From an uncultured Actinomycetota bacterium (lineage in GTDB: Bacteria > Actinomycetota > Humimicrobiia > Humimicrobiales > Humimicrobiaceae): 64,000 bases of DNA. The stretch lies in the NCBI GenBank assembly GCA_964494385.1, contig CAZBSE010000003.1, positions 7,849 to 71,848 on the forward strand, given 5' to 3'. How positions within the stretch are numbered: position 1 is the first letter of the stretch; each line of letters starts with the position of its first letter. The notes beneath the pieces are model-generated. The model was not told the origin of the DNA. It was given only the letters and a program-made list of their open reading frames with translations, and did no database searches. Shown piece by piece: positions 3,857 to 19,891 of this stretch. Position numbers and translations under genes: made by a program.

Positions 3857-4822
3857 ATGAAGGCTCTGGTGTACGATAAGAGTAAAAAAGAATTACTGGA
3901 AAAAATTACTTTTAAGGGTATCCCCCCTTATATAAATAACGCCGAATACCTTATATGGATTGATATCGAAAATCCCAGCAGGGATAACATGCAGTTTTTA
4001 AGGGATCATTTTCATTTCCATCCCCTGGATATAGAAGACTGCCTTAGCGTTATTGAAAGACCAAAATTAGATGAATACGATGACTACTTCTTTTTGGTTC
4101 TGCATATACCTTTTTACATAAAGCAAACCAGAAGGCTTGTACCTTTTAATGTAAATATATTTATCGGAAATAACTTCCTGATAACCATACACCGCGGATT
4201 GTGCAAACCAATACAAAATGCGTTTGACTACCTGACCAAAAATCATCAAATCCTTGAAAAGGGATCCGGTTACCTTTTGCATAAAGTAATAGACTCGCTT
4301 ATTGATCATAATTTTCCTATCTTGAATAAAATTTACAGAAATATACAAAGTGTTGAAGATGCTATCTTTAAAAAAGCAAGCAGCAAGAATGTCAGGGATA
4401 TACTTCTTATCAGAACCAATATATTAGCCTTCAGAAATATAATTTTTCCGCAAAGAAAATTGCTTAAAACTCTGGAGATTAAAGATATGGACTTCCTGAT
4501 AGAAGCCCTGGAGGTTTACTTCAGTGACCTGGTGGACCATATAGAGAAAATCTGGGACACCCTTGAAAATTACAAAGAACTGATAGAGGGAATGCACGAC
4601 GCCCACCAATCACTATTATCCAATAAGATTAATGATATAATGCGAATACTTACCATCTTTTCTGTGATAATTCTTCCCCTTACTCTAATATCCGGAATTT
4701 ATGGAATGAATATTGTTCTTCCCCTGGGCAAAAATGCTTTCGCTTTTATTATAATCGTTGCTGCCATGATTATAATATCCATAGGAATGCTGATATACTT
4801 CAAGCACAAGGACTGGATATAA
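3857..4822 (+). CDS. corA: magnesium/cobalt transporter CorA
   Basis: The YGMN motif is present (YGMNIVLP) ahead of two C-terminal TM helices. An ATG at 3857 with an AGGGGG RBS is preferred over the upstream GTG at 3848 used by the track. Confidence 0.85.
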   Translation: MKALVYDKSKKELLEKITFKGIPPYINNAEYLIWIDIENPSRDNMQFLRDHFHFHPLDIEDCLSVIERPKLDEYDDYFFLVLHIPFYIKQTRRLVPFNVNIFIGNNFLITIHRGLCKPIQNAFDYLTKNHQILEKGSGYLLHKVIDSLIDHNFPILNKIYRNIQSVEDAIFKKASSKNVRDILLIRTNILAFRNIIFPQRKLLKTLEIKDMDFLIEALEVYFSDLVDHIEKIWDTLENYKELIEGMHDAHQSLLSNKINDIMRILTIFSVIILPLTLISGIYGMNIVLPLGKNAFAFIIIVAAMIIISIGMLIYFKHKDWI

Positions 4823-6045: not shown

Positions 6046-6912
6046 TTACTGCTTCCTGGTTCTTATAATCATATTATCAATAAGCCTGGTCTTTCCTATC
6101 CATATTGCTGCTGCGGCCAGCACGCTTTCCTGTTTTCTGCCGGTCTTTACTATTTTCTTAAGCGTTGCCGGATCTCTAAATTCAAAATAGTCCACACTTT
6201 TTACATACGCGTTCTTTTTTATTCTCTTTAAGGCCTCTCTTCTTATCCCTTCAAGATCTTTCCTGCCGCTTTCAATCATATCCCTTGTTTCGTTCAGGCT
6301 CTCATACAAAATAACGGCATTTTCCCTTTCTTCTCCGGACAGATACTCATTCCTGGAACTTATAGCCAGGCCGTCTTTTTCCCTTATGGTGGGACCGGTT
6401 ATAATTTCTATATCAAGATTCAGATCTTTAACCATCTTCTTTATTATTATAATTTGCTGATAATCCTTTTGCCCAAAATAAGCTTTATGCGCCTTTACAA
6501 TATTAAACAATTTTATAACCACTGTGGTCACGCCTTTAAAATGACCGGGCCTATGCTTTCCACACATAATTTTACCCAGTTCTTTTACCTCCACAAAAGT
6601 TTTATACCCGGGGGCATACATGTCGCTGGCCTCAGGATAAAATATGTAATCCACTCCTTTCCTCTCCGCCAGAACACTGTCTCTCTCTATGTTTCTGGGA
6701 TAATTATTGTAATCTTCGTCCGGACCAAACTGGGTTGGATTTACAAAAACACTCATAAACACTTTATCGCAATCTTTTTTTGCCATTCCGATAAGACTCA
6801 GGTGCCCCTGGTGCAGAGACCCCATGGTGGGAACGAATCCAATCTTATATCCCTTCTTCCTGAGGCAGCTTGCCGTTGACTTGCATTTATCTATTTTTTT
6901 GATTATTTCCAT
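6046..6912 (-). CDS. panC: pantoate--beta-alanine ligase (pantothenate synthetase)
   Basis: The PTMGSLHQGHLSLI HIGH-type motif and the length of 288 aa fit PanC. Confidence 0.9.
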   Translation of the reverse strand: MEIIKKIDKCKSTASCLRKKGYKIGFVPTMGSLHQGHLSLIGMAKKDCDKVFMSVFVNPTQFGPDEDYNNYPRNIERDSVLAERKGVDYIFYPEASDMYAPGYKTFVEVKELGKIMCGKHRPGHFKGVTTVVIKLFNIVKAHKAYFGQKDYQQIIIIKKMVKDLNLDIEIITGPTIREKDGLAISSRNEYLSGEERENAVILYESLNETRDMIESGRKDLEGIRREALKRIKKNAYVKSVDYFEFRDPATLKKIVKTGRKQESVLAAAAIWIGKTRLIDNMIIRTRKQ

Positions 6913-6975
6913 TACCGGGCTTTCGGTTTATATGTAAAAACTTACAGATAAATTAATTATTTGATTCAGTAGGAA

Positions 6976-7779
6976 TCAGTAGGAATGTTCTCTTGCGGGA
7001 AATTCCCCGCTTTTTACCTCTTCAATGTATTTTTTATAACATCTTTTCATCTGTTTGCCTAATTCGCCGTACCTTTTTGAAAATTTTGGTTTGAATTTTT
7101 CAAAAAGCCCCAGCATGTCATGTGTCACAAGTACCTGACCATCACAATCCACCCCGGCGCCTATTCCAATTGTGGGGACGTTTATCTGTTTGGTTATTTT
7201 CCCTGCAAGTTTTGCAGGAATCTTTTCCAGCACTATTGAAAATACCCCTGCTTTCTCGAGGCCCCTGGCATCCTCCAATAATTTTGAAGCCTGTTCGTTG
7301 TCCTGCCCCCTTACTCCATAACCGCCCAGCTTATAAACCGACTGCGGGGTTAATCCCAGATGTCCCATAACAGGGATCCCTGACCCAACAATTAATTCTA
7401 TGGTGCCGTAAATCTCCTTGCCTCCTTCAAGCTTTATGGCTTCAACGCCGGATTCCTTTAAAAACCTTCCCGCATTTCTTACTGCTTCCTCCCCGCTTGC
7501 CTGATAGGACATAAAGGGCATATCGCCTATAACCATGGCCCTTTTAACTCCCCTGGTAACTGCTTTGCAGTGATGGATCATCTCATCCATTGTAACCGGG
7601 ATGGTATTTTTATACCCAAGCAGTACATTACCAACGGAATCCCCTACCAGTATTAAATCTATGCCGCTTTCGTCCAGCTGGGATGCCATAAGACAATCGT
7701 AAGCGGTAAGCATGGTAATCTTTTCGTTTTTTTTCTTCATCTCTATTAGATCGTTAGTCGTAACTTTTTTTACATCCAT
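6976..7779 (-). CDS. panB: 3-methyl-2-oxobutanoate hydroxymethyltransferase
   Basis: ITMLTAYDCLMASQLDESGIDLILVGDSVGNV matches the PanB signature. Confidence 0.9.
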   Translation of the reverse strand: MDVKKVTTNDLIEMKKKNEKITMLTAYDCLMASQLDESGIDLILVGDSVGNVLLGYKNTIPVTMDEMIHHCKAVTRGVKRAMVIGDMPFMSYQASGEEAVRNAGRFLKESGVEAIKLEGGKEIYGTIELIVGSGIPVMGHLGLTPQSVYKLGGYGVRGQDNEQASKLLEDARGLEKAGVFSIVLEKIPAKLAGKITKQINVPTIGIGAGVDCDGQVLVTHDMLGLFEKFKPKFSKRYGELGKQMKRCYKKYIEEVKSGEFPAREHSY

Positions 7780-7790
7780 ACCCTTCCCTT

Positions 7791-8705
7791 CTACTCTTCG
7801 AGTATTTTCTTAAGTTTTTCCATGGTGCTTTTACTTATCCATTTATTCCCATATGCGACCCTGCTGGTCTCTGCGCCCATACTTCTGTATAATTTAACAT
7901 CTTTCTCTGTAAAATATTTATTAAAATTATCCATATGCTCTTTAATTGTGCCTATATCTCCTCTGGCTATGGGGCCGGTCAGGGACTTCTCCGTTCCCAT
8001 CTTCTTTATATTGCCGATTGTCCCCTCGATCAAACCCATTAAACCCTTTAAAGAATCCTCCGGTTTTATCCCAATTTTCCTATGTATAACTACTGCGTAA
8101 TTAATAAGAGAGACAAGATAATTAGAGGCCACACATGCCGCAGCGTGGTAAAGAGGTTTCTTGTCGTCTTCTACTTCTATTGATAAGCCGCCTAATTTCT
8201 CCACTAAAAGCTTTGATGCTTTTTTTGATTTTATACCGGAACAGGTAATACCAAAAACAGTTCCCTTCAGTGTTTTGATGGCTTCCTGGATAGAAGCAAA
8301 AGATTTCAATGGGTGTATTGATGCTGTTTCGGCACCGGCACCGGCCGCTGAATCCAACGCTTTTAGCGATTTGGATCCGCTGAAATGAATAGCATAGTAA
8401 TTTTTATAATCTCTATTACTGTCTCCAAAAATTTCTCCGCACACGCTGCTTATACTATCGTCCGGTGTGCATATTAATATACAATTAGCCATTGCCGCCG
8501 CCCTCAAGTTTTCCCTGGTAAAGTCAATACCTGCAGCCCTGCTGCCCAGGATTTTCTTAGCTCTGTTTAAGGATTCCGAAGACCTTGAGGCTATTGCCTT
8601 TAGCCTGATGCCGGGAACATTTCTTTTTGCAAGAGTATAACTTATTGTTGTTCCCAGTCTTCCCGCTCCAATGATGCATAAGTTTAAATAAATATTTTTA
8701 TTCAT
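7791..8705 (-). CDS. Rossmann-fold NAD(P)-binding protein (DUF2520-like), putative ketopantoate reductase substitute
   Basis: It has an N-terminal GAGRLG dinucleotide-binding motif and is the first gene of the panBCD operon. No canonical PanE is seen. The functional assignment is inferred from context. Confidence 0.5.
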   Translation of the reverse strand: MNKNIYLNLCIIGAGRLGTTISYTLAKRNVPGIRLKAIASRSSESLNRAKKILGSRAAGIDFTRENLRAAAMANCILICTPDDSISSVCGEIFGDSNRDYKNYYAIHFSGSKSLKALDSAAGAGAETASIHPLKSFASIQEAIKTLKGTVFGITCSGIKSKKASKLLVEKLGGLSIEVEDDKKPLYHAAACVASNYLVSLINYAVVIHRKIGIKPEDSLKGLMGLIEGTIGNIKKMGTEKSLTGPIARGDIGTIKEHMDNFNKYFTEKDVKLYRSMGAETSRVAYGNKWISKSTMEKLKKILEE

Positions 8706-8745: not shown

Positions 8746-9855
8746 CTAGGATACCCTGATTGGCATTAGCAGGTAAACCAAATTTTTATTCTTCTCTGAT
8801 TGCAACAGGATTGGCTTGAGTGGTTCCTCTATTGATAATATTATATTTTTATCTTCAATTATATTTATACCGTCTATCAGAAATTCGGGGTTAAATGCCG
8901 TTTCTATTTCCTCTTCCCCATACGAAACCTCAAATTCTTCGCTGGAACTTCCTACTTCCTTTATATTCATTGAAACCGTTACCCTGCCCTTGTTAAAGTT
9001 TAGCCTGATGGGTATATTGTCCTGAGATATAGATGAAATCCTTTTTACAACCTCCAGAACCCTGCTTCTGTCCAAGATTATATTGTGTTTAAAACTTTTA
9101 GGTATTAGTTGTTTATATTCTGGAAATTTTCCCGAAAGAAGCCTTGAAACTATGGTATTTTTCCTTTTGTTTCCACCTTCCAGGCTAAAGCTTATCTGGT
9201 TCTCCTCCAGATTTATTTCAACAGCTCCTTCCCCGAATTCGCTTTTAAGGATGCTGTCAAGCACTTTGGCCGGAATGACCACCTTTGTCAGCGGTATTCC
9301 CTCTCCCAGTTTTTCCTTTACCAAGGCAAGCCTATAGCTGTCCGTTGCAACCATTCTCAGCACCCCTTCTTCTATTTCTAAGAGCACCCCCGTAAGAACC
9401 GCTCTACTCTCATCCAACGATGCGGCTTTCTGTACCTTTGATACCAGTCCCTTAAACTTATCCAGGTTCATTTTAAAACAATTCTCTTTTTTTATCTCCG
9501 GAAACTCCGGATACTCTTCTACAGACATGGTGTTCAAGGTAAAAAAAGCCTTCTCGCAGCTTATTTTTACCTTGTTGCTGGCCTTATCCAGTTCTAATTC
9601 TATTTTTGACTCTTTGAGACTCTTTAATATATTTATTAAAATTCTGGAGGGCACCACAATTTTCCCTTTTTCAAGTATTTTTACCGATGTGCTGCTTTTA
9701 ATACTTGTTTCCAAATCAGTGCTATACACTGTCAAATTTTCCTGGGCGTCTAGCATTACTCCGCTTAATATAAAAGCTGATGTTTTGGGAGCAATTGCTC
9801 TGCTTGCCATTAGTATGGTGTCAAGAAGTTCTGTTCTTGTAGTTTGAAATTTCAT
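8746..9855 (-). CDS. dnaN: DNA polymerase III beta sliding clamp
   Basis: A 369-aa three-domain clamp lies immediately downstream of dnaA. Confidence 0.9.
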   Translation of the reverse strand: MKFQTTRTELLDTILMASRAIAPKTSAFILSGVMLDAQENLTVYSTDLETSIKSSTSVKILEKGKIVVPSRILINILKSLKESKIELELDKASNKVKISCEKAFFTLNTMSVEEYPEFPEIKKENCFKMNLDKFKGLVSKVQKAASLDESRAVLTGVLLEIEEGVLRMVATDSYRLALVKEKLGEGIPLTKVVIPAKVLDSILKSEFGEGAVEINLEENQISFSLEGGNKRKNTIVSRLLSGKFPEYKQLIPKSFKHNIILDRSRVLEVVKRISSISQDNIPIRLNFNKGRVTVSMNIKEVGSSSEEFEVSYGEEEIETAFNPEFLIDGINIIEDKNIILSIEEPLKPILLQSEKNKNLVYLLMPIRVS

Positions 9856-10058
9856 TTCTACCTCTTTTAAGATAATTGAAATATAAATATATTCTATTAT
9901 ATATAGTATTTAATTAAAATAGCCAGTAGAAGTCATAAGAGCTGTTCGAAATGTTAATAAAAGCAGAAAAGGTTCTGATAGGTGAGGTTTTGGAGAACAG
10001 CAAATGTTAAAAGAAGAGCTCAAGCCTGTTTAAAACTTAAAAAAAACGGGAATAAATA

Positions 10059-10088
10059 AAAAAACCGCCGGTTTTGAACCGTTTTTTT
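10059..10088. terminator. weak bidirectional hairpin (CGGTT-TTG-AACCG) flanked by A6 and T7, in the dnaA-dnaN spacer
   Basis: aaaaaaccgCCGGTTttgAACCGttttttt. It has a short stem and low stability. Confidence 0.3.
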
Positions 10089-10155
10089 GGGAGAGTGTTG
10101 AAAACTGTTGGAAGAAATCAACAAGGTTTAAACAAAAAGGGGCTTATCTATGTTA

Positions 10156-11520
10156 TTAGGAGGACATTTTTATTTTGTTTGTAATTTCCTGGATCTGAGC
10201 GTACACGGTCCTGTCTTTATTAATAAGATCGGCTATTTTAGAAACAGCATAAATAACGGTAGAATGATCTCTGTTGCCGAAAGACTTGCCAATTCTGGGG
10301 AGAGAGCTGCCGGTAAGTTCCCTGGAGAGATACATCGACAGCTGGCGGGCGTGAGATATGAATTTGTTCCGCTTGGGACTCATGATATCGTTAATTGAAA
10401 TTGAAAAATATTTTGACACTTCTTTAATTATTGTTTGTATACTTATCTTATGTTCCTTGTCGTCAGGCAGTATATCTTTAAGAATATTAACAGCCATTTC
10501 CAGATCCGGTTTTGATTTAGTTAGCGATGCAAAGGCGACAACCCTGGTAAGCGCGCCTTCAAGCTCCCTGATGTTTTTAGTTATTTTTTCTGCTATAAGG
10601 TTCAGTACTTCATCGGATACGGTTAAATCTTCTCTTTCGGAATATTTCCTTAATATCGCTATTCTGGTTTCGAGGTTAGGCGGTTTTATATCGATTACCA
10701 GACCCCATTCGAACCGGGACCTTAACCTTTCTTCAAGAGTTGATATATTTTTTGGAAGCCTGTCGCTGGAAAGGACAATCTGCCGGTTGGTATCGTGAAG
10801 AGTGTTAAATGTATGAAAAAATTCTTCCTGGCTGGCCTCTTTATCCTCGAGAAAGTGTATGTCGTCCACCAGCAATACATCATTATTCCTATAGCTCTCC
10901 TTAAAAGCATAAATGTTTTTATACCTTAAAGAATTTATAAAATCGTTTAGAAATTTTTCGGCAGAAACATATTTTACGGTCATATTGGGATGAAGCTGCA
11001 GCGTATATTGCCCGATGGCGTGCAGCAGGTGTGTTTTACCCAGGCCCACTCCACCATAGATAAATAAAGGATTGTAAGCTTTCCCCGGCTTCTCGCTGAC
11101 AGCCATCGAAATAGCACGGGCAAAACGGTTTCCATTACCGACCACGAAGGTATCAAACGTATATTTTTTATTGAACACGGAGTTTGTATTTTTTTTATAG
11201 GCATACAACCCTGCACCTTCAGCGGTTTCGTCAACATAATCACCGTAAGGCTCAGAGGCATCTTCGGTATTATCGGGAGAGGTTATAATTTTTATTTTGT
11301 ATTTGCTGTTGGTAGCCTTTTTTATTGATTCAGATAGTAGTTTTGAGTATCTTGATTCAAGCCATTCTCTGGCAAAGTTACTGCCCACCGAAAGGGTTAA
11401 GCAGTTTTTTTTTAGAGATAAAGGAGTTATGTGTTCAAACCAGGCCTTATAGGTGGGAAGATTAATTTTATCCTTTATGTCATCAAGGGTGATTTTCCAG
11501 ATATTTTCAAGGTCTGCCAT
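10156..11520 (-). CDS. dnaA: chromosomal replication initiator protein DnaA
   Basis: It carries the AAA+ Walker A motif GGVGLGKTHLLHAIG and the domain IV DNA-binding signature at the C-terminus. Confidence 0.95.
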   Translation of the reverse strand: MADLENIWKITLDDIKDKINLPTYKAWFEHITPLSLKKNCLTLSVGSNFAREWLESRYSKLLSESIKKATNSKYKIKIITSPDNTEDASEPYGDYVDETAEGAGLYAYKKNTNSVFNKKYTFDTFVVGNGNRFARAISMAVSEKPGKAYNPLFIYGGVGLGKTHLLHAIGQYTLQLHPNMTVKYVSAEKFLNDFINSLRYKNIYAFKESYRNNDVLLVDDIHFLEDKEASQEEFFHTFNTLHDTNRQIVLSSDRLPKNISTLEERLRSRFEWGLVIDIKPPNLETRIAILRKYSEREDLTVSDEVLNLIAEKITKNIRELEGALTRVVAFASLTKSKPDLEMAVNILKDILPDDKEHKISIQTIIKEVSKYFSISINDIMSPKRNKFISHARQLSMYLSRELTGSSLPRIGKSFGNRDHSTVIYAVSKIADLINKDRTVYAQIQEITNKIKMSS

Positions 11521-11532
11521 AATACTCTAATA

Positions 11533-12378
11533 TTAAATATTATTTGAATAATATTCAAGGTATTTTATGCCTTTTTTGGATAATTTTCTTTTACCATTTT
11601 TACTTGGCGTTAAAAATTTAGTTTTTTCCAGATGTATCAGTTCCCTGTACGAAGTTGAGAGGCTAAAGCCTAATTCCTTGGCTATTGTAGAAGGACCGGC
11701 TTCTTCAAGTTCCAGAATTATAAAAAGAATTTTTTTATGCCTTTCGGAAAGAACTTTATAATCGGGCTTATCGAAGCTTTCTGCCGGTGGTTTTGCATCG
11801 GTATCGGCTGCTATCCCGGCGGTTGTTTCACTGCTCGTGTCCGACAGCTTCTGGCTCCTGAACGCTGATTCTAATTTTAGGGATATTACTGTTCCCTTTT
11901 TTATATTATCACTGACATCTATGGATCCTCCGGAAAAGGTGATTGTTTCTTTCACTATGGGAAAGCCGGAGCCTACCCCCCTTATATATTCTTTCATTTT
12001 TTTAGTAGCAGAAGTATATCCGGGAAGAAAGGCTTTATCCTTATCTTCAATCCCCGGACCCTGATCCGATATTATTATATGATTTCCTTTGTCCAGTAGG
12101 GTAATTACGACTTCTCTGAAATCCGCATGTATTAAGTTTTCTATTATTTCTTTTATTATAGTATAGGGAATCTTTCCGCCGATTTCATGGGATAGGCTGT
12201 AGGTTCTCTGAGACGTTTGGTCGATAAAGTTGTTAATGTCGTTAAAGCTAAGGTTAATAATTCTTGGAATACTCCTCATGTTATCATAGACAGCGATCCT
12301 GACCGGTATGTCTGGTTTATCGCGTTCGGGATTATCTGTGGAAGCGATGTCTTTTAAAATGTTATTTGGCTCGGGCAT
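11533..12378 (-). CDS. GHKL/HATPase_c-type ATP-binding domain protein with C-terminal winged-helix DNA-binding domain
   Basis: N-box and G1/G2-box motifs are present (ENLIHADFREV...DQGPGIEDKDKAF...GVGSGFPIV), with a C-terminal wHTH (KILFIILELEEAGPSTIAKELGFSLSTSYRELIHLEK). It lies 12 bp upstream of dnaA on the same strand. Confidence 0.5.
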   Translation of the reverse strand: MPEPNNILKDIASTDNPERDKPDIPVRIAVYDNMRSIPRIINLSFNDINNFIDQTSQRTYSLSHEIGGKIPYTIIKEIIENLIHADFREVVITLLDKGNHIIISDQGPGIEDKDKAFLPGYTSATKKMKEYIRGVGSGFPIVKETITFSGGSIDVSDNIKKGTVISLKLESAFRSQKLSDTSSETTAGIAADTDAKPPAESFDKPDYKVLSERHKKILFIILELEEAGPSTIAKELGFSLSTSYRELIHLEKTKFLTPSKNGKRKLSKKGIKYLEYYSNNI

Positions 12379-12856
12379 GATAAGTAAAGACTATGTTTCA
12401 ATTGTTTACCGCCGGACATATATGAATCCGGTAAACGCTTTTCATTTTCTTTCCAATGCTTTTAAGTTTTCAACAGACTAATAATAATATCTTAGATGAA
12501 AAAAAGCTACTAAATTATATAGTGGGCTGTATAAGTTATGAACATTTGGCATACAATACAGTGGTATTTTTTAAGTTTTCAACAATTTTTTCAACACATG
12601 TGGAAAAACCACAGAAGGTTATGGAAGCCCTTTAAAAAATCACACCATAAAGAATGAAATATCAATATTTTTTTTCAGAAGATATTTTCACAAGAACACA
12701 TGTTTGAAAGTATTAAAATCTAAGACTTTGATAAGGTGCCTTAAAATTAAACTTAATGGTGCTTAAGTGCAAATGCGGGCAACCTTGATATTAGTAAGAT
12801 TAAAATGTATAATCTACTACTTAATTGAGAACAATAACCTAAAAGATAGGCATAAA
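12379..12856. other. candidate oriC region. It is the divergent intergenic space between the rpmH side and the dnaA side and contains repeated DnaA-box-like 9-mers TTTTCAACA (3 copies), TGTGGAAAA and AT-rich tracts.
   Basis: Gene strands switch here. TTTTCAACA occurs at about 12467, 12573 and 12584 and differs from the R-box TTATCCACA at 2 positions. TGTGGAAAAACCACA forms an inverted half-box pair at about 12598. The reverse-complement TGTTGAAAA also occurs in the dnaA-dnaN spacer at about 10096. Confidence 0.45.
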
Positions 12857-12991
12857 ATGAAGAGGACTTTTCAGCCAAACGTTAGAAAAAGAAAAAAAAA
12901 CCATGGTTTTAGAGAAAGAATGAAAACAAAAGCAGGAAGGGCCATAATTGCAAACAGAAGGAAAAAGCAAAGAAAGAAGCTCACTGCTTAA
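12857..12991 (+). CDS. rpmH: 50S ribosomal protein L34
   Basis: [44 protein letters not shown] has the canonical L34 sequence. The track ORF begins upstream, but the ATG at 12857 is the conserved start. Confidence 0.9.
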
Positions 12992-16697: not shown

Positions 16698-17987
16698 ATG
16701 AATTATAAGGTAATAGTTATAGGCGGAGGACATGCCGGGTGTGAGGCGGCACTGGCATCTGCAAGAAATGGAGTAAAAACTTTACTGATATCAATAAATA
16801 TGGACAGCATTGCCCTTATGCCCTTCGGCGGTACGATAGGCGGAACCGGGAAGGATAAAATAATAAGAGAGATAGATGCTCTGGGCGGTGAGATTTCAAA
16901 AAATACTGATAAGAATTATATAAATATAATAAACGTTCCGGGCAAAGGGGGACGCGCTTTAAAAACTATACAGGCAGTGGTGGACAGAAGAAGATATTTT
17001 TTATCGATGAAGAAAGTACTGGAAGATCAGGATAATTTAGATTTAAGGCAGGGTCTTGCAGTTAGGATAGAAAAGAAATTAAAAAAATTTTATCTATATA
17101 CCAGCGATGAAATAATTTATAGCTGCAGGGCTATTGTTCTATGTACCGGTACTTTTTTAAGAGGAAAAATTTTTTGGGGCAGGAGAATAATTGAGGCAGG
17201 AAGGCAGGGAGAAATATGTTCAAGAAGACTCTCAATAAGTATTGTAAAAATGGGAGTCAAATTAGACAGAATTAGAAGTTATGCCGCCCCATCGGTTGAT
17301 AGGAAAACAATTGATATAAATAGACTGTTAAAGCAGCCATCTGAAAGGTGCCCGGAGTTGTTTTCGCATGAAAGAAAGATTAATGGAAGGGAACAGTTAA
17401 ACAGCTATATAACATTTACTGACAGGAAATGCACCAAATATATTTTAAGAAGCATAAATAAAGCAGGAGATAGTAAAAGATATATATACTCAGAAAAAGG
17501 CGGAGATATAAATTCAATTGAGGGAAGAATTTTAGAAAATAAAAAGAATGAAAATTTTAAGGTTTGTATACAACCGCTGGGGCGGGATACAAATGAAATG
17601 TATTTGCAGGGACTCGAGACTGCATTGCCGGAAGAAGTTCAGATCGGTATGGTAAGAAGGATTAACGGCCTGGAAAATACGGAAATAACCAGACCCGGTT
17701 ATGGTGTTGAGTATAACTATTTAAAACCCTTCCAAATAAAAAATAATCTGGAAGGCAAAAACATAGAAGGGATCTTTTTTGCAGGGAACATAAACGGTAC
17801 GGGGAGCTATGAAGAAGCTGCAGCACAGGGAATTATTGCAGGCATAAATGCTGCCAGAAAATCACGGGGTCTTGGCAGCATGGTTATAGAGAAAAAGTAT
17901 GAATATATCGGTATGATAATAGAAGGTCTTGTTGACAGGGAAAATAATGGGTTAAAATCAAAAGACATTGTTTCACGTGAAACATAA
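16698..17987 (+). CDS. truncated MnmG (GidA) paralog. It has the FAD-binding and insertion domains only, lacks the C-terminal MnmE-interaction domain, and has degenerate active-site motifs.
   Basis: It aligns along its whole length with the N-terminal two-thirds of the downstream MnmG ([40 protein letters not shown]). In this copy CNPSIGG becomes FGGTIGG, so the Cys is lost, and GPRHCPSID is diverged. Homology stops about 14 codons before the stop, and the last codons are read from the parS palindrome. Confidence 0.7.
   Translation: MNYKVIVIGGGHAGCEAALASARNGVKTLLISINMDSIALMPFGGTIGGTGKDKIIREIDALGGEISKNTDKNYINIINVPGKGGRALKTIQAVVDRRRYFLSMKKVLEDQDNLDLRQGLAVRIEKKLKKFYLYTSDEIIYSCRAIVLCTGTFLRGKIFWGRRIIEAGRQGEICSRRLSISIVKMGVKLDRIRSYAAPSVDRKTIDINRLLKQPSERCPELFSHERKINGREQLNSYITFTDRKCTKYILRSINKAGDSKRYIYSEKGGDINSIEGRILENKKNENFKVCIQPLGRDTNEMYLQGLETALPEEVQIGMVRRINGLENTEITRPGYGVEYNYLKPFQIKNNLEGKNIEGIFFAGNINGTGSYEEAAAQGIIAGINAARKSRGLGSMVIEKKYEYIGMIIEGLVDRENNGLKSKDIVSRET
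17969..17984. promoter_or_regulatory. parS: parS site (second perfect copy of TGTTTCACGTGAAACA). It overlaps the last codons of the truncated mnmG paralog and lies 38 nt upstream of mnmG.
   Basis: Same 16-mer as at 16639. Confidence 0.8.
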
Positions 17988-18022
17988 AATGGAATATTGA
18001 GTAATTTAAGAAAGCGGAGATC

Positions 18023-19891
18023 ATGGTTTACGATATTATAGTCGCAGGTGCGGGACACGCGGGTTGTGAAGCTGCACTTGCATCTGCGAGATTGGGATTA
18101 AAAACACTGCTGCTAACCATCAATGTGGATAAGATTGCTTTAATGCCCTGTAATCCGTCAATAGGGGGACTGGGAAAGAGTCAGCTTGTAAGAGAAATAG
18201 ATGCACTTGGCGGGCAGATGGCAAAAACTGCTGACAGGACTTTGATACAGATTAAAATTTTGAATAAAAGCAAGGGTCCTGCGGTCCAGGCTCTAAGAGC
18301 ACAGATAGACAAGAAGGAATATGAAATCGAAATGAAGAGGGTCTTAGAGAATACGGAAAATTTGACCTTAAGGCAGGGTACTGTAAAGAAAATATGCGTA
18401 AAGGATAATTCAGTAACCGGAGTAGAAGTAGAAAGCGGTATACGTTTTTCGGGGAAGGCTGTAATCATAGCCACTGGTACTTTTTTAAGGGGAAGAATAA
18501 TCATTGGAAAGAAAGATTATCCTGCGGGCCGCATGGGTGAATATCCTGCCATGAATCTTACGGGGAATTTAATAAACCTTGGGTTTAAAATAAGCAGGTT
18601 CCAAACCGCAACCCCACCCCGAATCGATAAAAGAACCATAAATTTTTCAAAAACTGCTGTACAGTATGGTGAAAGACAATATTTAAGCTTCTCTTTCTGG
18701 GATAAAGAGAAGATTCATGATAGCATCAAGTGCTACCTTACATATACCAATGAGAAGACTCATAAGGTGATTGCTGAAAATATTGAGCAATCTCCTATAA
18801 AATCCGGTATGATCAGCTCACATGGTCCTAGGCACTGTCCCTCCATAGACAGGAAGGTAATTAATTTTCCAGAAAAGAAAAGGCACCCGGTTTTTATTGA
18901 ACCAGAGGGGCTTTTTACAAATGAGATGTATCTGCAGGGATTAACCACGAGTATGCCCATGAAAGTGCAGCAGAAGATAATAAATACAGTGGAGGGATTG
19001 GAAGATGCAAGAATAATAAGACCGGGTTATGCCGTGGAATATGATTACATAATTCCAAATCAATTGAATTTTACTCTGGAATCTAAAATAGTTGAAAACC
19101 TGTATTTTGCAGGGCAGATAAATGGCACTTCGGGGTATGAGGAAGCTGCGGCACAGGGACTGATTGCGGGAATAAATGCAGCATTGAAAGTAATTTCCAG
19201 ACCTTCGTTAATTCTAACAAGAGATAATAGCTATATAGGAGTCTTGATAGACGATCTTTTGACAAAAAAACTTTTGGAGCCTTATAGGATGTACACTTCA
19301 AGGGCAGAATATAGACTGGTATTGCGTTCCGATAATGCCGATATAAGATTAAGCGGATTTGGAAATGATATCGGTCTTATAACTGACAGACAGTACAGCG
19401 GAGTGATTAAGAGAGAGAAAGAAATTAATAAATTGATTAAAAAGCTAAAAGCAAAAGTTTTAAATCCTGGCAAGGCTAACAATTCCGTTCTGCAGAGAAT
19501 GGGCATAAAACCAATTGATGCCCCCCTGAGCATTTACGGGCTTTTAAAGAGGCCCGGAGTAGATATAAAAAATACAGTGTGTTTGCTTAACAGCGGGAGT
19601 GGTGATTTTAGCAGAAATATTTTAAAACAAGCGGAGATCAGAATAAAATATGAGGGCTATATAAACAGACAATTAAGTGAAATTAAAAAATTGGAAAGCC
19701 TGGAGAAATATAATCTTCCGGAAGATTTTGATTATTATAAGATAATGGGGCTGGCTTATGAGGCCCAGGAAAAGCTTGCTAAAATTAAGCCCAATACTCT
19801 GGGGCAGGCTTCAAGAGTCGCAGGGGTATCTCCTGCGGATATTTCGATACTGATGTTAAACTTAAAAGGTAAATTAAAAACGGGTGCTTGA
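18023..19891 (+). CDS. mnmG: tRNA uridine 5-carboxymethylaminomethyl modification enzyme MnmG (GidA), full length
   Basis: The 622-aa protein has [10 protein letters not shown] at the N-terminus, the motifs [11 protein letters not shown] and GPRHCPSID, and the C-terminal helical domain. Confidence 0.9.

Follow-up and report, generated by a model that had tools for sequence, protein, structure and literature searches.

What is the function of a gene that separates rpmH from dnaA, within the replication-origin region? The question is raised by a 64-kb stretch of DNA from an uncultured Actinomycetota bacterium of the family Humimicrobiaceae (contig CAZBSE010000003.1). The whole stretch is hereafter called the window; coordinates are positions within it and the strand is given for each feature. 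The gene, here called the GHKL-wHTH gene, occupies 11533..12378 on the minus strand, stop codon included, and encodes a protein of 281 amino acids in which a GHKL-type ATP-binding domain is followed by a predicted winged helix-turn-helix (wHTH). It precedes dnaA in lineages from several phyla, and we tentatively read its product as a possible regulator of dnaA expression or of DnaA activity.

A conserved gene upstream of dnaA

The open reading frame (ORF) starts with ATG and ends with a TAA stop codon at 11533–11535 (TATTAGAGTATT; sequence read directly). It is separated by 12 nt (11521..11532, −) from the ATG of dnaA at 11520; direct reading of the sequence thus confirms the initial annotation, which had placed a 281-residue ORF 12 bp before dnaA on the same strand. 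The downstream partner in this putative operon, dnaA (10156..11520, −), was recognized from its ORF and translation, and tblastn finds an orthologue in every sufficiently long locus. On the other side lies the divergent rpmH (12857..12991, +), which encodes ribosomal protein L34 (translation MKRTFQPN…) and which tblastn places at the same position in nearly all loci; the spacer between rpmH and the GHKL-wHTH gene is 478 bp long (12379..12856). The gene is in the ORF list, its product has homologues and matches Pfam HATPase_c, and the ratio of nonsynonymous to synonymous substitutions (dN/dS) relative to the closest orthologue is 0.13 overall. By these sequence criteria, it is a real gene under purifying selection and not a chance ORF.

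A search of 5.8 billion proteins returned 1452 homologues at E ≤ 1e-3. The best 120 of them share 68–100% identity with the window protein and carry the names Candidatus Hydromicrobium, Humimicrobiaceae or 'Actinobacteria bacterium', which places the window in an uncultured member of the actinomycetotal class Humimicrobiia. An exhaustive search of representatives gave 683 clusters at 50% identity with a match at E ≤ 1e-3, and 305 at E ≤ 1e-30. When one genome per species was scanned, at least 572 species were found to encode a relative, among Actinomycetota (Humimicrobiia, Coriobacteriia and Gaiellales), Sysuimicrobiota/CSP1-3 and Bacillota/Limnochordia. Synteny was inspected in the best 80 of these at least 572 loci, ranked by similarity to the GHKL-wHTH protein.

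The carriers among the best 80 loci are Humimicrobiia-like metagenome-assembled genomes (MAGs), Coriobacteriia, Gaiellales, Ca. Hakubella, Ca. Geohabitans, the CSP1-3/ANGP1 group (now Sysuimicrobiota), and several Clostridia, Limnochordia and Bacillota MAGs. The Coriobacteriia include Slackia isoflavoniconvertens DSM 22006, S. heliotrinireducens and Eggerthellaceae. With the Slackia protein as query, 2781 homologues score E ≤ 1e-10. The names that they bear, in Slackia, Gordonibacter and Arabiibacter, are limited to 'histidine kinase', 'ATP-binding protein' and 'Predicted transcriptional regulator'.

Where the contig is long enough, tblastn with the window neighbours gives the same order: (mnmE–jag–yidC–…–rpmH) on one strand and, divergent from it, GHKL-wHTH → dnaA → dnaN. 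Wherever the contig reaches, dnaA lies directly downstream on the same strand. The sole rearrangement, in locus L075, has rpmH and dnaN elsewhere, and the GHKL-wHTH gene is still upstream of dnaA. Counted up to the earliest possible dnaA start, the gap after the stop codon measures 9–12 nt in all same-class loci without interruption by N; for the other phyla it is mostly 0–90 nt. In distant loci, the median identity is 42% for GHKL-wHTH, 46% for DnaA, 33% for DnaN and 35% for YidC, in loci that were picked by GHKL-wHTH similarity. The initial annotation described the gene as inserted between rpmH and dnaA: it does intervene between the two, but the wording has to be given up for an old arrangement that is common to several phyla, and absence from the relatives is excluded.

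In locus L013 (~4514..4710), the orthologue is seemingly made of two ORFs and the gap is an outlier. A pseudogene was considered and rejected, the break being a run of N in the assembly.

An orphan GHKL domain joined to a winged helix

Residues 24–170 (11869..12309, −) form a GHKL (Bergerat-fold) ATP-binding domain, on the evidence of alignments, AlphaFold, Foldseek and profile matches. Pfam HATPase_c matches residues 72–170 with 46.8 bits, for a gathering score of 26.4, and dN/dS is 0.085 over the domain. The motifs are an N-box (E77/E80/N81/H84/A85), a G1 box (D105-x-G107-x-G109), a lid (P119-G120-Y-T-S-A124), a G2 box (R133-G134-V-G136-S-G138) and a G3 box (G162-T163). Their conservation was judged in an alignment of 44 sequences and in 150 representatives at 50% identity. 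In both, E77, E80, N81, H84, A85, D105, G107, G109, P119, G120, A124, G134, G136, G138 and G162 are invariant or at least 90% conserved, which indicates that the ATP pocket is under selection; T163 is likewise conserved in the 150 representatives. By its motifs, the protein belongs to the GHKL superfamily, with all nucleotide-binding motifs intact.

The structural model comes from AlphaFold run with the 150 representative sequences, with a predicted local distance difference test (pLDDT) score of 87.4; 21 close homologues gave only 51. Residues 1–22 are modelled as a disordered tail (pLDDT ~50), which is variable across the family. The GHKL domain is an α/β fold, with pLDDT of 94–98 over most of residues 24–170. 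It comprises a β-hairpin (24–30/39–45), a helix (48–65), the N-box helix (72–85) and a helix at 138–148, and two further β-hairpins flank the lid and this last helix.

A linker that is predicted to be disordered follows (residues 171–211; 11746..11868, −; pLDDT 49–67). Its alignment is gapped and unconserved, and its dN/dS is 0.36. The linker and the N-terminal tail differ in length and sequence among members, and the longer members are longer only there. The initial annotation called the linker Ser/Thr-rich: this is correct for the window protein, in which 10 of the 39 residues read from 171 to 209 are Ser or Thr, but it is not a conserved feature of the family.

The C-terminal domain (residues 212–281; 11536..11745, −) has the lowest dN/dS of the protein, 0.052. 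AlphaFold predicts an H-H-H-β-β-H winged helix over residues 212–280 with pLDDT ~97 (helices 212–224, 229–236 and 240–252, strands 256–258 and 264–266). In the window protein, the best matches are below threshold in Pfam (TrmB, 17.3 bits, E 0.004), and a Csa3-type wHTH of NCBIfam matches with E 3e-5. Over 44 diverse members, Pfam HTH_IclR matches 34, TrmB 24 and MarR 15, and several wHTH models exceed their gathering score in some members (e.g., P0238). Among PDB structures, the family profile matches PhiH1 repressor-like proteins, ArsR, ZitR/AdcR and IclR. A winged helix, predicted to bind DNA, is thus confirmed for the family by profiles and by the model. The order proposed initially, a standalone GHKL domain, a linker and a winged helix, is borne out by the HATPase_c score, the family wHTH matches and the AlphaFold model. 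Profile searches placed HATPase_c above gathering, left the wHTH sub-threshold here and confirmed it across the family; they brought up no well-known unrelated function.

The initial annotation also likened the GHKL domain to anti-sigma kinases of the RsbW/SpoIIAB type or to the catalytic CA domain of histidine kinases. The second likeness holds. The family profile matches the solved structures of KinB (1e-9) and CheA (5e-7), then ZraS, YycG and HK853, and CA domains of histidine kinases are among the Foldseek matches, DIP2311 (3lmm) being the top one. The first likeness does not hold as such: SpoIIAB, like the N-terminus of MutL, reaches only ~2e-5, and HATPase_c_2 has no match. As judged from profiles and the model, the domain is an orphan kinase-type CA domain joined to a predicted DNA-binding domain.

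A two-component histidine kinase was considered and rejected, since the protein has no DHp/HisKA domain, no acceptor histidine and no adjacent response regulator. No HisKA-type Pfam domain matches the window protein even at E ≤ 10; the part that is N-terminal to the N-box is modelled as a β-hairpin and one helix. The only near-invariant histidine is H84, in the N-box, and H64 is unconserved outside the class. The conserved neighbours are only rpmH and dnaA, with no response regulator among them.

The gene lies between two clusters of DnaA boxes

The minimum of the cumulative GC skew lies near 10 kb of the window, which indicates that this is the chromosomal replication-origin region. The sequence TTTTC[AC]ACA occurs exactly 11 times in the 64 kb, for 2.4 expected. 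Four of these 11 sites are at 12467–12607, inside the candidate DnaA-box region that had been proposed at 12379..12856, and one is in the dnaA–dnaN spacer. The cluster upstream of the GHKL-wHTH gene (12467..12607, no strand assigned), which is seen in the box scan and as conserved blocks in relatives, contains boxes at 12467–12475 (+), 12576–12584 (+), 12588–12596 (+) and 12599–12607 (−), the last two being head-to-head with a 2-bp spacer.

The classical box TTATCCACA was rejected as the box of the window, its occurrences with at most one mismatch not being enriched window-wide (27 for 19.8 expected). This lineage appears to use the forms TTTTCAACA/TTTTCCACA in its place, and aligned positions in relatives alternate between forms. 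When the upstream spacer is compared with nine same-class loci, TTTTCCACAtgTGTTGAAAAaatTGTTGAAAA of the window aligns with the classical TTATCCACAggTGTGGATAA in L007. Since window boxes align with classical boxes in relatives, the TTTTC[AC]ACA sites appear to be true DnaA boxes.

Counts of TTATCCACA with at most one mismatch across 63 loci give 6.4 boxes per kb for the spacer on the rpmH side, 5.4 per kb for the one between dnaA and dnaN, and 0.20 per kb elsewhere, an enrichment of about 30-fold in both flanking spacers. With DnaA-box clusters on both sides, the GHKL-wHTH gene and dnaA lie within a bipartite origin. The origin of Bacillus subtilis has the same bipartite layout, with two DnaA-box clusters. 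In the window, the second half of this origin-like region is the dnaA–dnaN spacer (9856..10155, no strand assigned), which contains a DnaA box (10096–10104, −), a terminator-like hairpin (10069–10081) and, beside dnaN, a stretch of ~90% A+T (9871–9920).

A promoter-like sequence, TTCATA-17-TATAAT, lies between the DnaA boxes (12514..12542, −). It scores 10/12 in a consensus scan and its −10-like element is partly conserved in relatives; it is a candidate promoter of the GHKL-wHTH–dnaA transcript. The top enriched 7–9-mers in 58 distant upstream spacers are derivatives of the DnaA box. As only DnaA boxes are conserved upstream, the expression of the GHKL-wHTH gene is expected to follow the autoregulation of DnaA.

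The head-to-head box pair deserves a separate description. It is a 20-bp palindrome with a 2-bp spacer (TTWTCCACA-NN-TGTGGAWAA; 12588..12607 in the window), present across phyla in 48 of 70 rpmH-side spacers, compared to 1 of 63 dnaA–dnaN spacers and 0 of 70 coding controls. In loci L001–L078, it is located 175–701 bp (mostly 220–375) upstream of the tblastn-aligned start of the GHKL-wHTH gene. The Coriobacteriia have a third box 3 nt beyond the pair, and in them ~20–40 nt separate the last box pair from the start codon. In principle, this palindrome could also be read by a winged-helix protein that forms dimers. A palindrome-like element, CAAACAnnTGTTC (12694..12706, no strand assigned), hardly varies among 10 same-class spacers. 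It shares AACACATGT, at 12695, with the box pair, where this sequence is at 12593; the element may be either an operator of its own or a head-to-head box pair that has degenerated.

Proposed role and the case against it

The role that we favor, as possible rather than probable, is that of a regulator that depends on ATP, is tethered to DNA and controls either the expression of dnaA or the activity of DnaA/oriC. What points to it is the conserved order of the genes and the domains of the protein, on which the functional proposals of the initial annotation (a regulator of initiation or of the origin, or a serine kinase acting on an origin-associated factor) also rest. The protein would be a soluble ATP- and DNA-binding regulator made together with DnaA, and its target would be the dnaA promoter/oriC region or DnaA itself. 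The winged helix would anchor it, probably in dimeric form, on or close to the left DnaA-box cluster, and the GHKL domain, by binding ATP or turning it over, would alter the action of the anchored protein. This could occur in two ways. In the first, the protein would transfer a phosphate to a partner such as DnaA, or to itself, or sequester such a partner in an ATP-dependent manner. In the second, ATP and ADP would switch the DNA binding of the protein itself. Either way, dnaA transcription or origin firing would be coupled to the nucleotide state of the cell. The version with phosphorylation or sequestration of DnaA follows the nearest analogy, CapK/CapS, in which a GHKL serine kinase controls a DNA-binding repressor (PMC13373217).

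A broader form of this proposal is that the family is a hitherto unrecognized class of initiation regulators common to several Gram-positive-type phyla, a GHKL ATPase that its winged helix would hold at the left box cluster and that would share a transcript with dnaA and be produced at a constant ratio to DnaA; we regard this generalization as doubtful. It is likewise unlikely, in our estimate, that such a regulator phosphorylates DnaA, sequesters it in an ATP-dependent manner or remodels the DnaA oligomer on oriC, in which case firing would read ATP through a protein other than DnaA.

Several points weigh against a role in the control of dnaA or DnaA. No gene order is more rigidly conserved in bacteria than that of the origin-proximal cluster, and this order (rnpA-rpmH-dnaA-dnaN, jag, rsmG) also keeps genes that are unrelated to initiation. 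Because the cluster keeps unrelated genes together, synteny with dnaA is weaker evidence here than it would be elsewhere. The synteny described above covers the best 80 of the at least 572 loci. The k-mers of the 58 distant spacers and the alignments of same-class and Coriobacteriia spacers gave only derivatives of the DnaA box, and no distinct operator was found upstream. The alignments of 44 and 150 sequences have no conserved histidine outside the ATP pocket, and neither a phospho-acceptor nor a partner can be named from them. Lastly, co-transcription with dnaA is inferred from the spacing of the two genes, and there is a weak promoter-like match inside the 3′ end of the GHKL-wHTH gene.

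Alternative explanations

The alternative that survives best, although we find it rather unlikely, is that the protein is a general one-component transcription factor: its GHKL domain would sense ATP or a ligand, its winged helix would regulate distant genes, and its adjacency to dnaA would reflect a frozen gene order and origin dosage. The architecture does parallel that of regulators made of a sensor and a winged helix, and the nearest winged helices are of the Csa3/CasR, MarR and IclR types. That no specific operator is seen in the upstream region of the gene, and that many functionally unrelated genes are retained at the origin, also fit this explanation. It accounts less well for the position of dnaA immediately 3′ of the gene, often within 15 nt and across phyla, which is tighter than for most neighbors in the origin cluster, and for a conservation near that of DnaA in distant loci, which is unusual for a peripheral regulator.

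The similarity to SpoIIAB raises another possibility, that of a Ser/Thr kinase or partner-switching factor of the SpoIIAB/RsbW/CapK type acting on a protein other than DnaA, the winged helix being a protein-contact or autoinhibitory module. The SpoIIAB structures match residues 76–174, the spIIAB model of NCBIfam is reached at 1.6e-5, the absence of a DHp domain sets the protein apart from histidine kinases, and CapK/CapS provides a precedent for GHKL serine kinases that control winged-helix repressors (PMC13373217). On the other hand, the CA domains of histidine kinases outscore SpoIIAB, HATPase_c_2 is matched neither by the window protein nor among the 25 listed of the 32 Pfam families found in 44 members, the Ser/Thr-rich linker is unconserved, and the conserved neighborhood, to which this check was confined, contains no STAS antagonist or sigma-factor gene. 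We therefore consider this explanation quite improbable. Membership in the RsbW/SpoIIAB anti-sigma family itself was rejected; in addition to lacking HATPase_c_2, the protein has 281 residues with a fused winged helix, whereas the family consists of standalone proteins of ~140–160 residues.

A factor for origin organization or segregation, acting on the structure of the origin in an ATP-dependent manner, like ParB, Noc or MORC-like clamps, and not on initiation, is very improbable. The origin location, with parA/parB 8–10 kb away, is compatible with it, as are the sequence of motif I (E-x-x-E-N-x-x-H-A), which is near the MutL pattern, and the weak MutL N-terminal matches. GHKL ATPases of the MutL/MORC type are ATP-driven DNA clamps. 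However, the GHKL-wHTH protein has no transducer (S5-fold) domain, its domain is of the kinase type by profile and fold, and there is no conserved N-terminal strap, because the tail (residues 1–22) is variable and disordered. A clamp of the GHL/MutL/MORC type was judged unlikely for these reasons, even if the motif I glutamate (E77) is present.

The idea that the gene was recently inserted, belongs to a mobile element or is a spurious ORF, supported only by the adjacency of rpmH and dnaA in model organisms, can be dismissed in view of the at least 572 carrier species, the position directly before dnaA wherever the contig reaches in the best 80 loci, the purifying selection, the absence of full-length matches in plasmid or phage collections and the absence of a composition anomaly. 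Plasmid matches are only partial and concern the generic ATPase domain; no whole-protein defense-system model matches, the PADLOC matches being confined to the winged helix (Csa3/CasR-like). A defense-system or mobile-element origin was rejected on the plasmid, phage and PADLOC results.

Neighboring genes and other features of the window

The plus-strand genes that diverge from the GHKL-wHTH gene are rpmH, rnpA, yidD, yidC, jag and mnmE, and this arm of the window continues with a GIDA-family gene, rsmG, parA and parB. Within 16698..19891, a GIDA-family protein of 429 residues (342 bits) directly precedes an ORF of 622 residues, which presumably occupies the position expected for mnmG; the two may be tandem GIDA-type paralogues.

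The other arm contains dnaN (8746..9855, −), which is recognized by its ORF and whose position is conserved. The pair recF–gyrB was not found downstream of dnaN (6046..8705), where there is a DUF2520 gene encoding a reductase-like protein (F420-oxidoreductase-like), followed by panB and panC. The DUF2520 gene is also present beyond dnaN in all same-class loci that extend that far.

A terminator-like hairpin at 10069..10081, with T-runs on both strands, is located 75–87 nt past the dnaA stop codon; the number of such matches is at chance level. A functional hairpin at this place would mean that dnaN has a transcript of its own, apart from the GHKL-wHTH–dnaA unit. There is no Shine-Dalgarno-like sequence in 12379..12400, before the only possible start codon of the GHKL-wHTH gene (…CATAGTCTTTACTTATC-ATG), unlike dnaN, which is preceded by AAGAGG. 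Initiation may be of a non-Shine-Dalgarno or short-leader type.

The tRNA scan found no tRNA gene in the whole 64-kb window, and no Rfam family reached its gathering score there. A structured RNA in the upstream spacer was rejected, as these scans gave nothing that explains its length.

In several Coriobacteriales/Eggerthellales loci (L060, L062, L065, L066, L069 and L075–L079), the tblastn alignment of DnaA begins at about residue 91–121 of the query, and at residue 190 in L078. The DnaA ORF was checked in Slackia and is longer, with 535 residues. In this clade, the DnaA domains I–II must thus be enlarged or highly divergent.

Comparison with known systems

The CA domains of histidine kinases (KinB, 3d36; HK853; CheA P4) are the best matches by profile and by fold, and they have the N, G1, F-like, G2 and G3 boxes in common with the GHKL-wHTH protein. 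Its lid between G1 and G2 is 29 residues long, a length within the range of histidine kinases. Unlike histidine kinases, the protein has no DHp/HisKA domain, no conserved acceptor histidine, no sensor, no membrane segment and no adjacent response regulator; a winged helix is fused to the CA domain instead.

With SpoIIAB/RsbW and CapK–CapS, it shares a GHKL domain without DHp and a remote profile similarity. In CapK/CapS, a GHKL kinase controls the DNA-binding repressor of the adjacent operon (PMC13373217). The GHKL-wHTH protein differs from these systems in that it has no HATPase_c_2 and no STAS partner, and in that a single chain carries both the kinase module and the DNA-binding one. The neighbor of its gene is dnaA and not a sigma factor gene or an immune operon.

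A precedent for the association of a GHKL-like domain with a winged helix is DIP2311 (PDB 3lmm), the top Foldseek match that spans both domains (template modeling score 0.40–0.43, query-normalized). Its architecture is AlbA_2 – HATPase_c_4 – winged helix. It shares ~10% identity with the GHKL-wHTH protein, in which AlbA_2 is absent, and its GHKL domain is of a different subfamily.

The nearest winged helices are those of Csa3/CasR (CARF–wHTH), which follow the same logic, an N-terminal nucleotide-binding domain and a C-terminal winged helix. Here the N-terminal fold is GHKL and not CARF, and there is no CRISPR or defense context.

The proposed role, tuning initiation through DnaA or the box regions, would be that of the known DnaA/oriC regulators (YabA, SirA, Soj, DnaD, Spo0A, Hda, DiaA, HobA, SeqA, MtrA and AdpA), among which Spo0A, MtrA and AdpA are DNA-binding proteins that occupy oriC. 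The Pfam, NCBIfam and PDB searches gave no sequence or domain homology to any of them, and to our knowledge none is a GHKL protein or is encoded in an operon with dnaA. The control of DnaA is understood in a few model bacteria, each with unrelated regulators (Hda/SeqA/DiaA, YabA/SirA/Soj, HobA, CtrA, MtrA). We know of no DnaA regulator in early-branching Actinomycetota, gut Coriobacteriia, Limnochordia or Sysuimicrobiota, and literature searches likewise found none.

In these lineages, the GHKL-wHTH gene is the obvious first candidate, by its conservation, which is close to that of dnaA, the putative shared transcript, the origin position and the predicted ATP- and DNA-binding domains. The role is directly testable, since there are cultured carriers (Slackia, Gordonibacter and Arabiibacter). 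If the protein is truly a DNA-tethered kinase that acts on the initiator, this would be a new principle in the regulation of bacterial replication. Were it merely a transcription factor, the family would still be one without functional annotation in thousands of genomes. That so conserved a partner in the dnaA operon has gone unnoticed would surprise replication specialists.

Pfam, NCBIfam and PADLOC contain no curated family for the GHKL-wHTH fusion (no family model in NCBIfam), and full-text literature searches returned no paper that treats this family, nor one about a gene lying between rpmH and dnaA in the lineages concerned. Each domain, taken separately, is ordinary. As far as sequence comparison can tell, what is new relative to the systems discussed above is that an orphan GHKL domain of the CA type is fused to a winged helix and, most notably, that the gene for this fusion has a fixed place before dnaA in hundreds of species.

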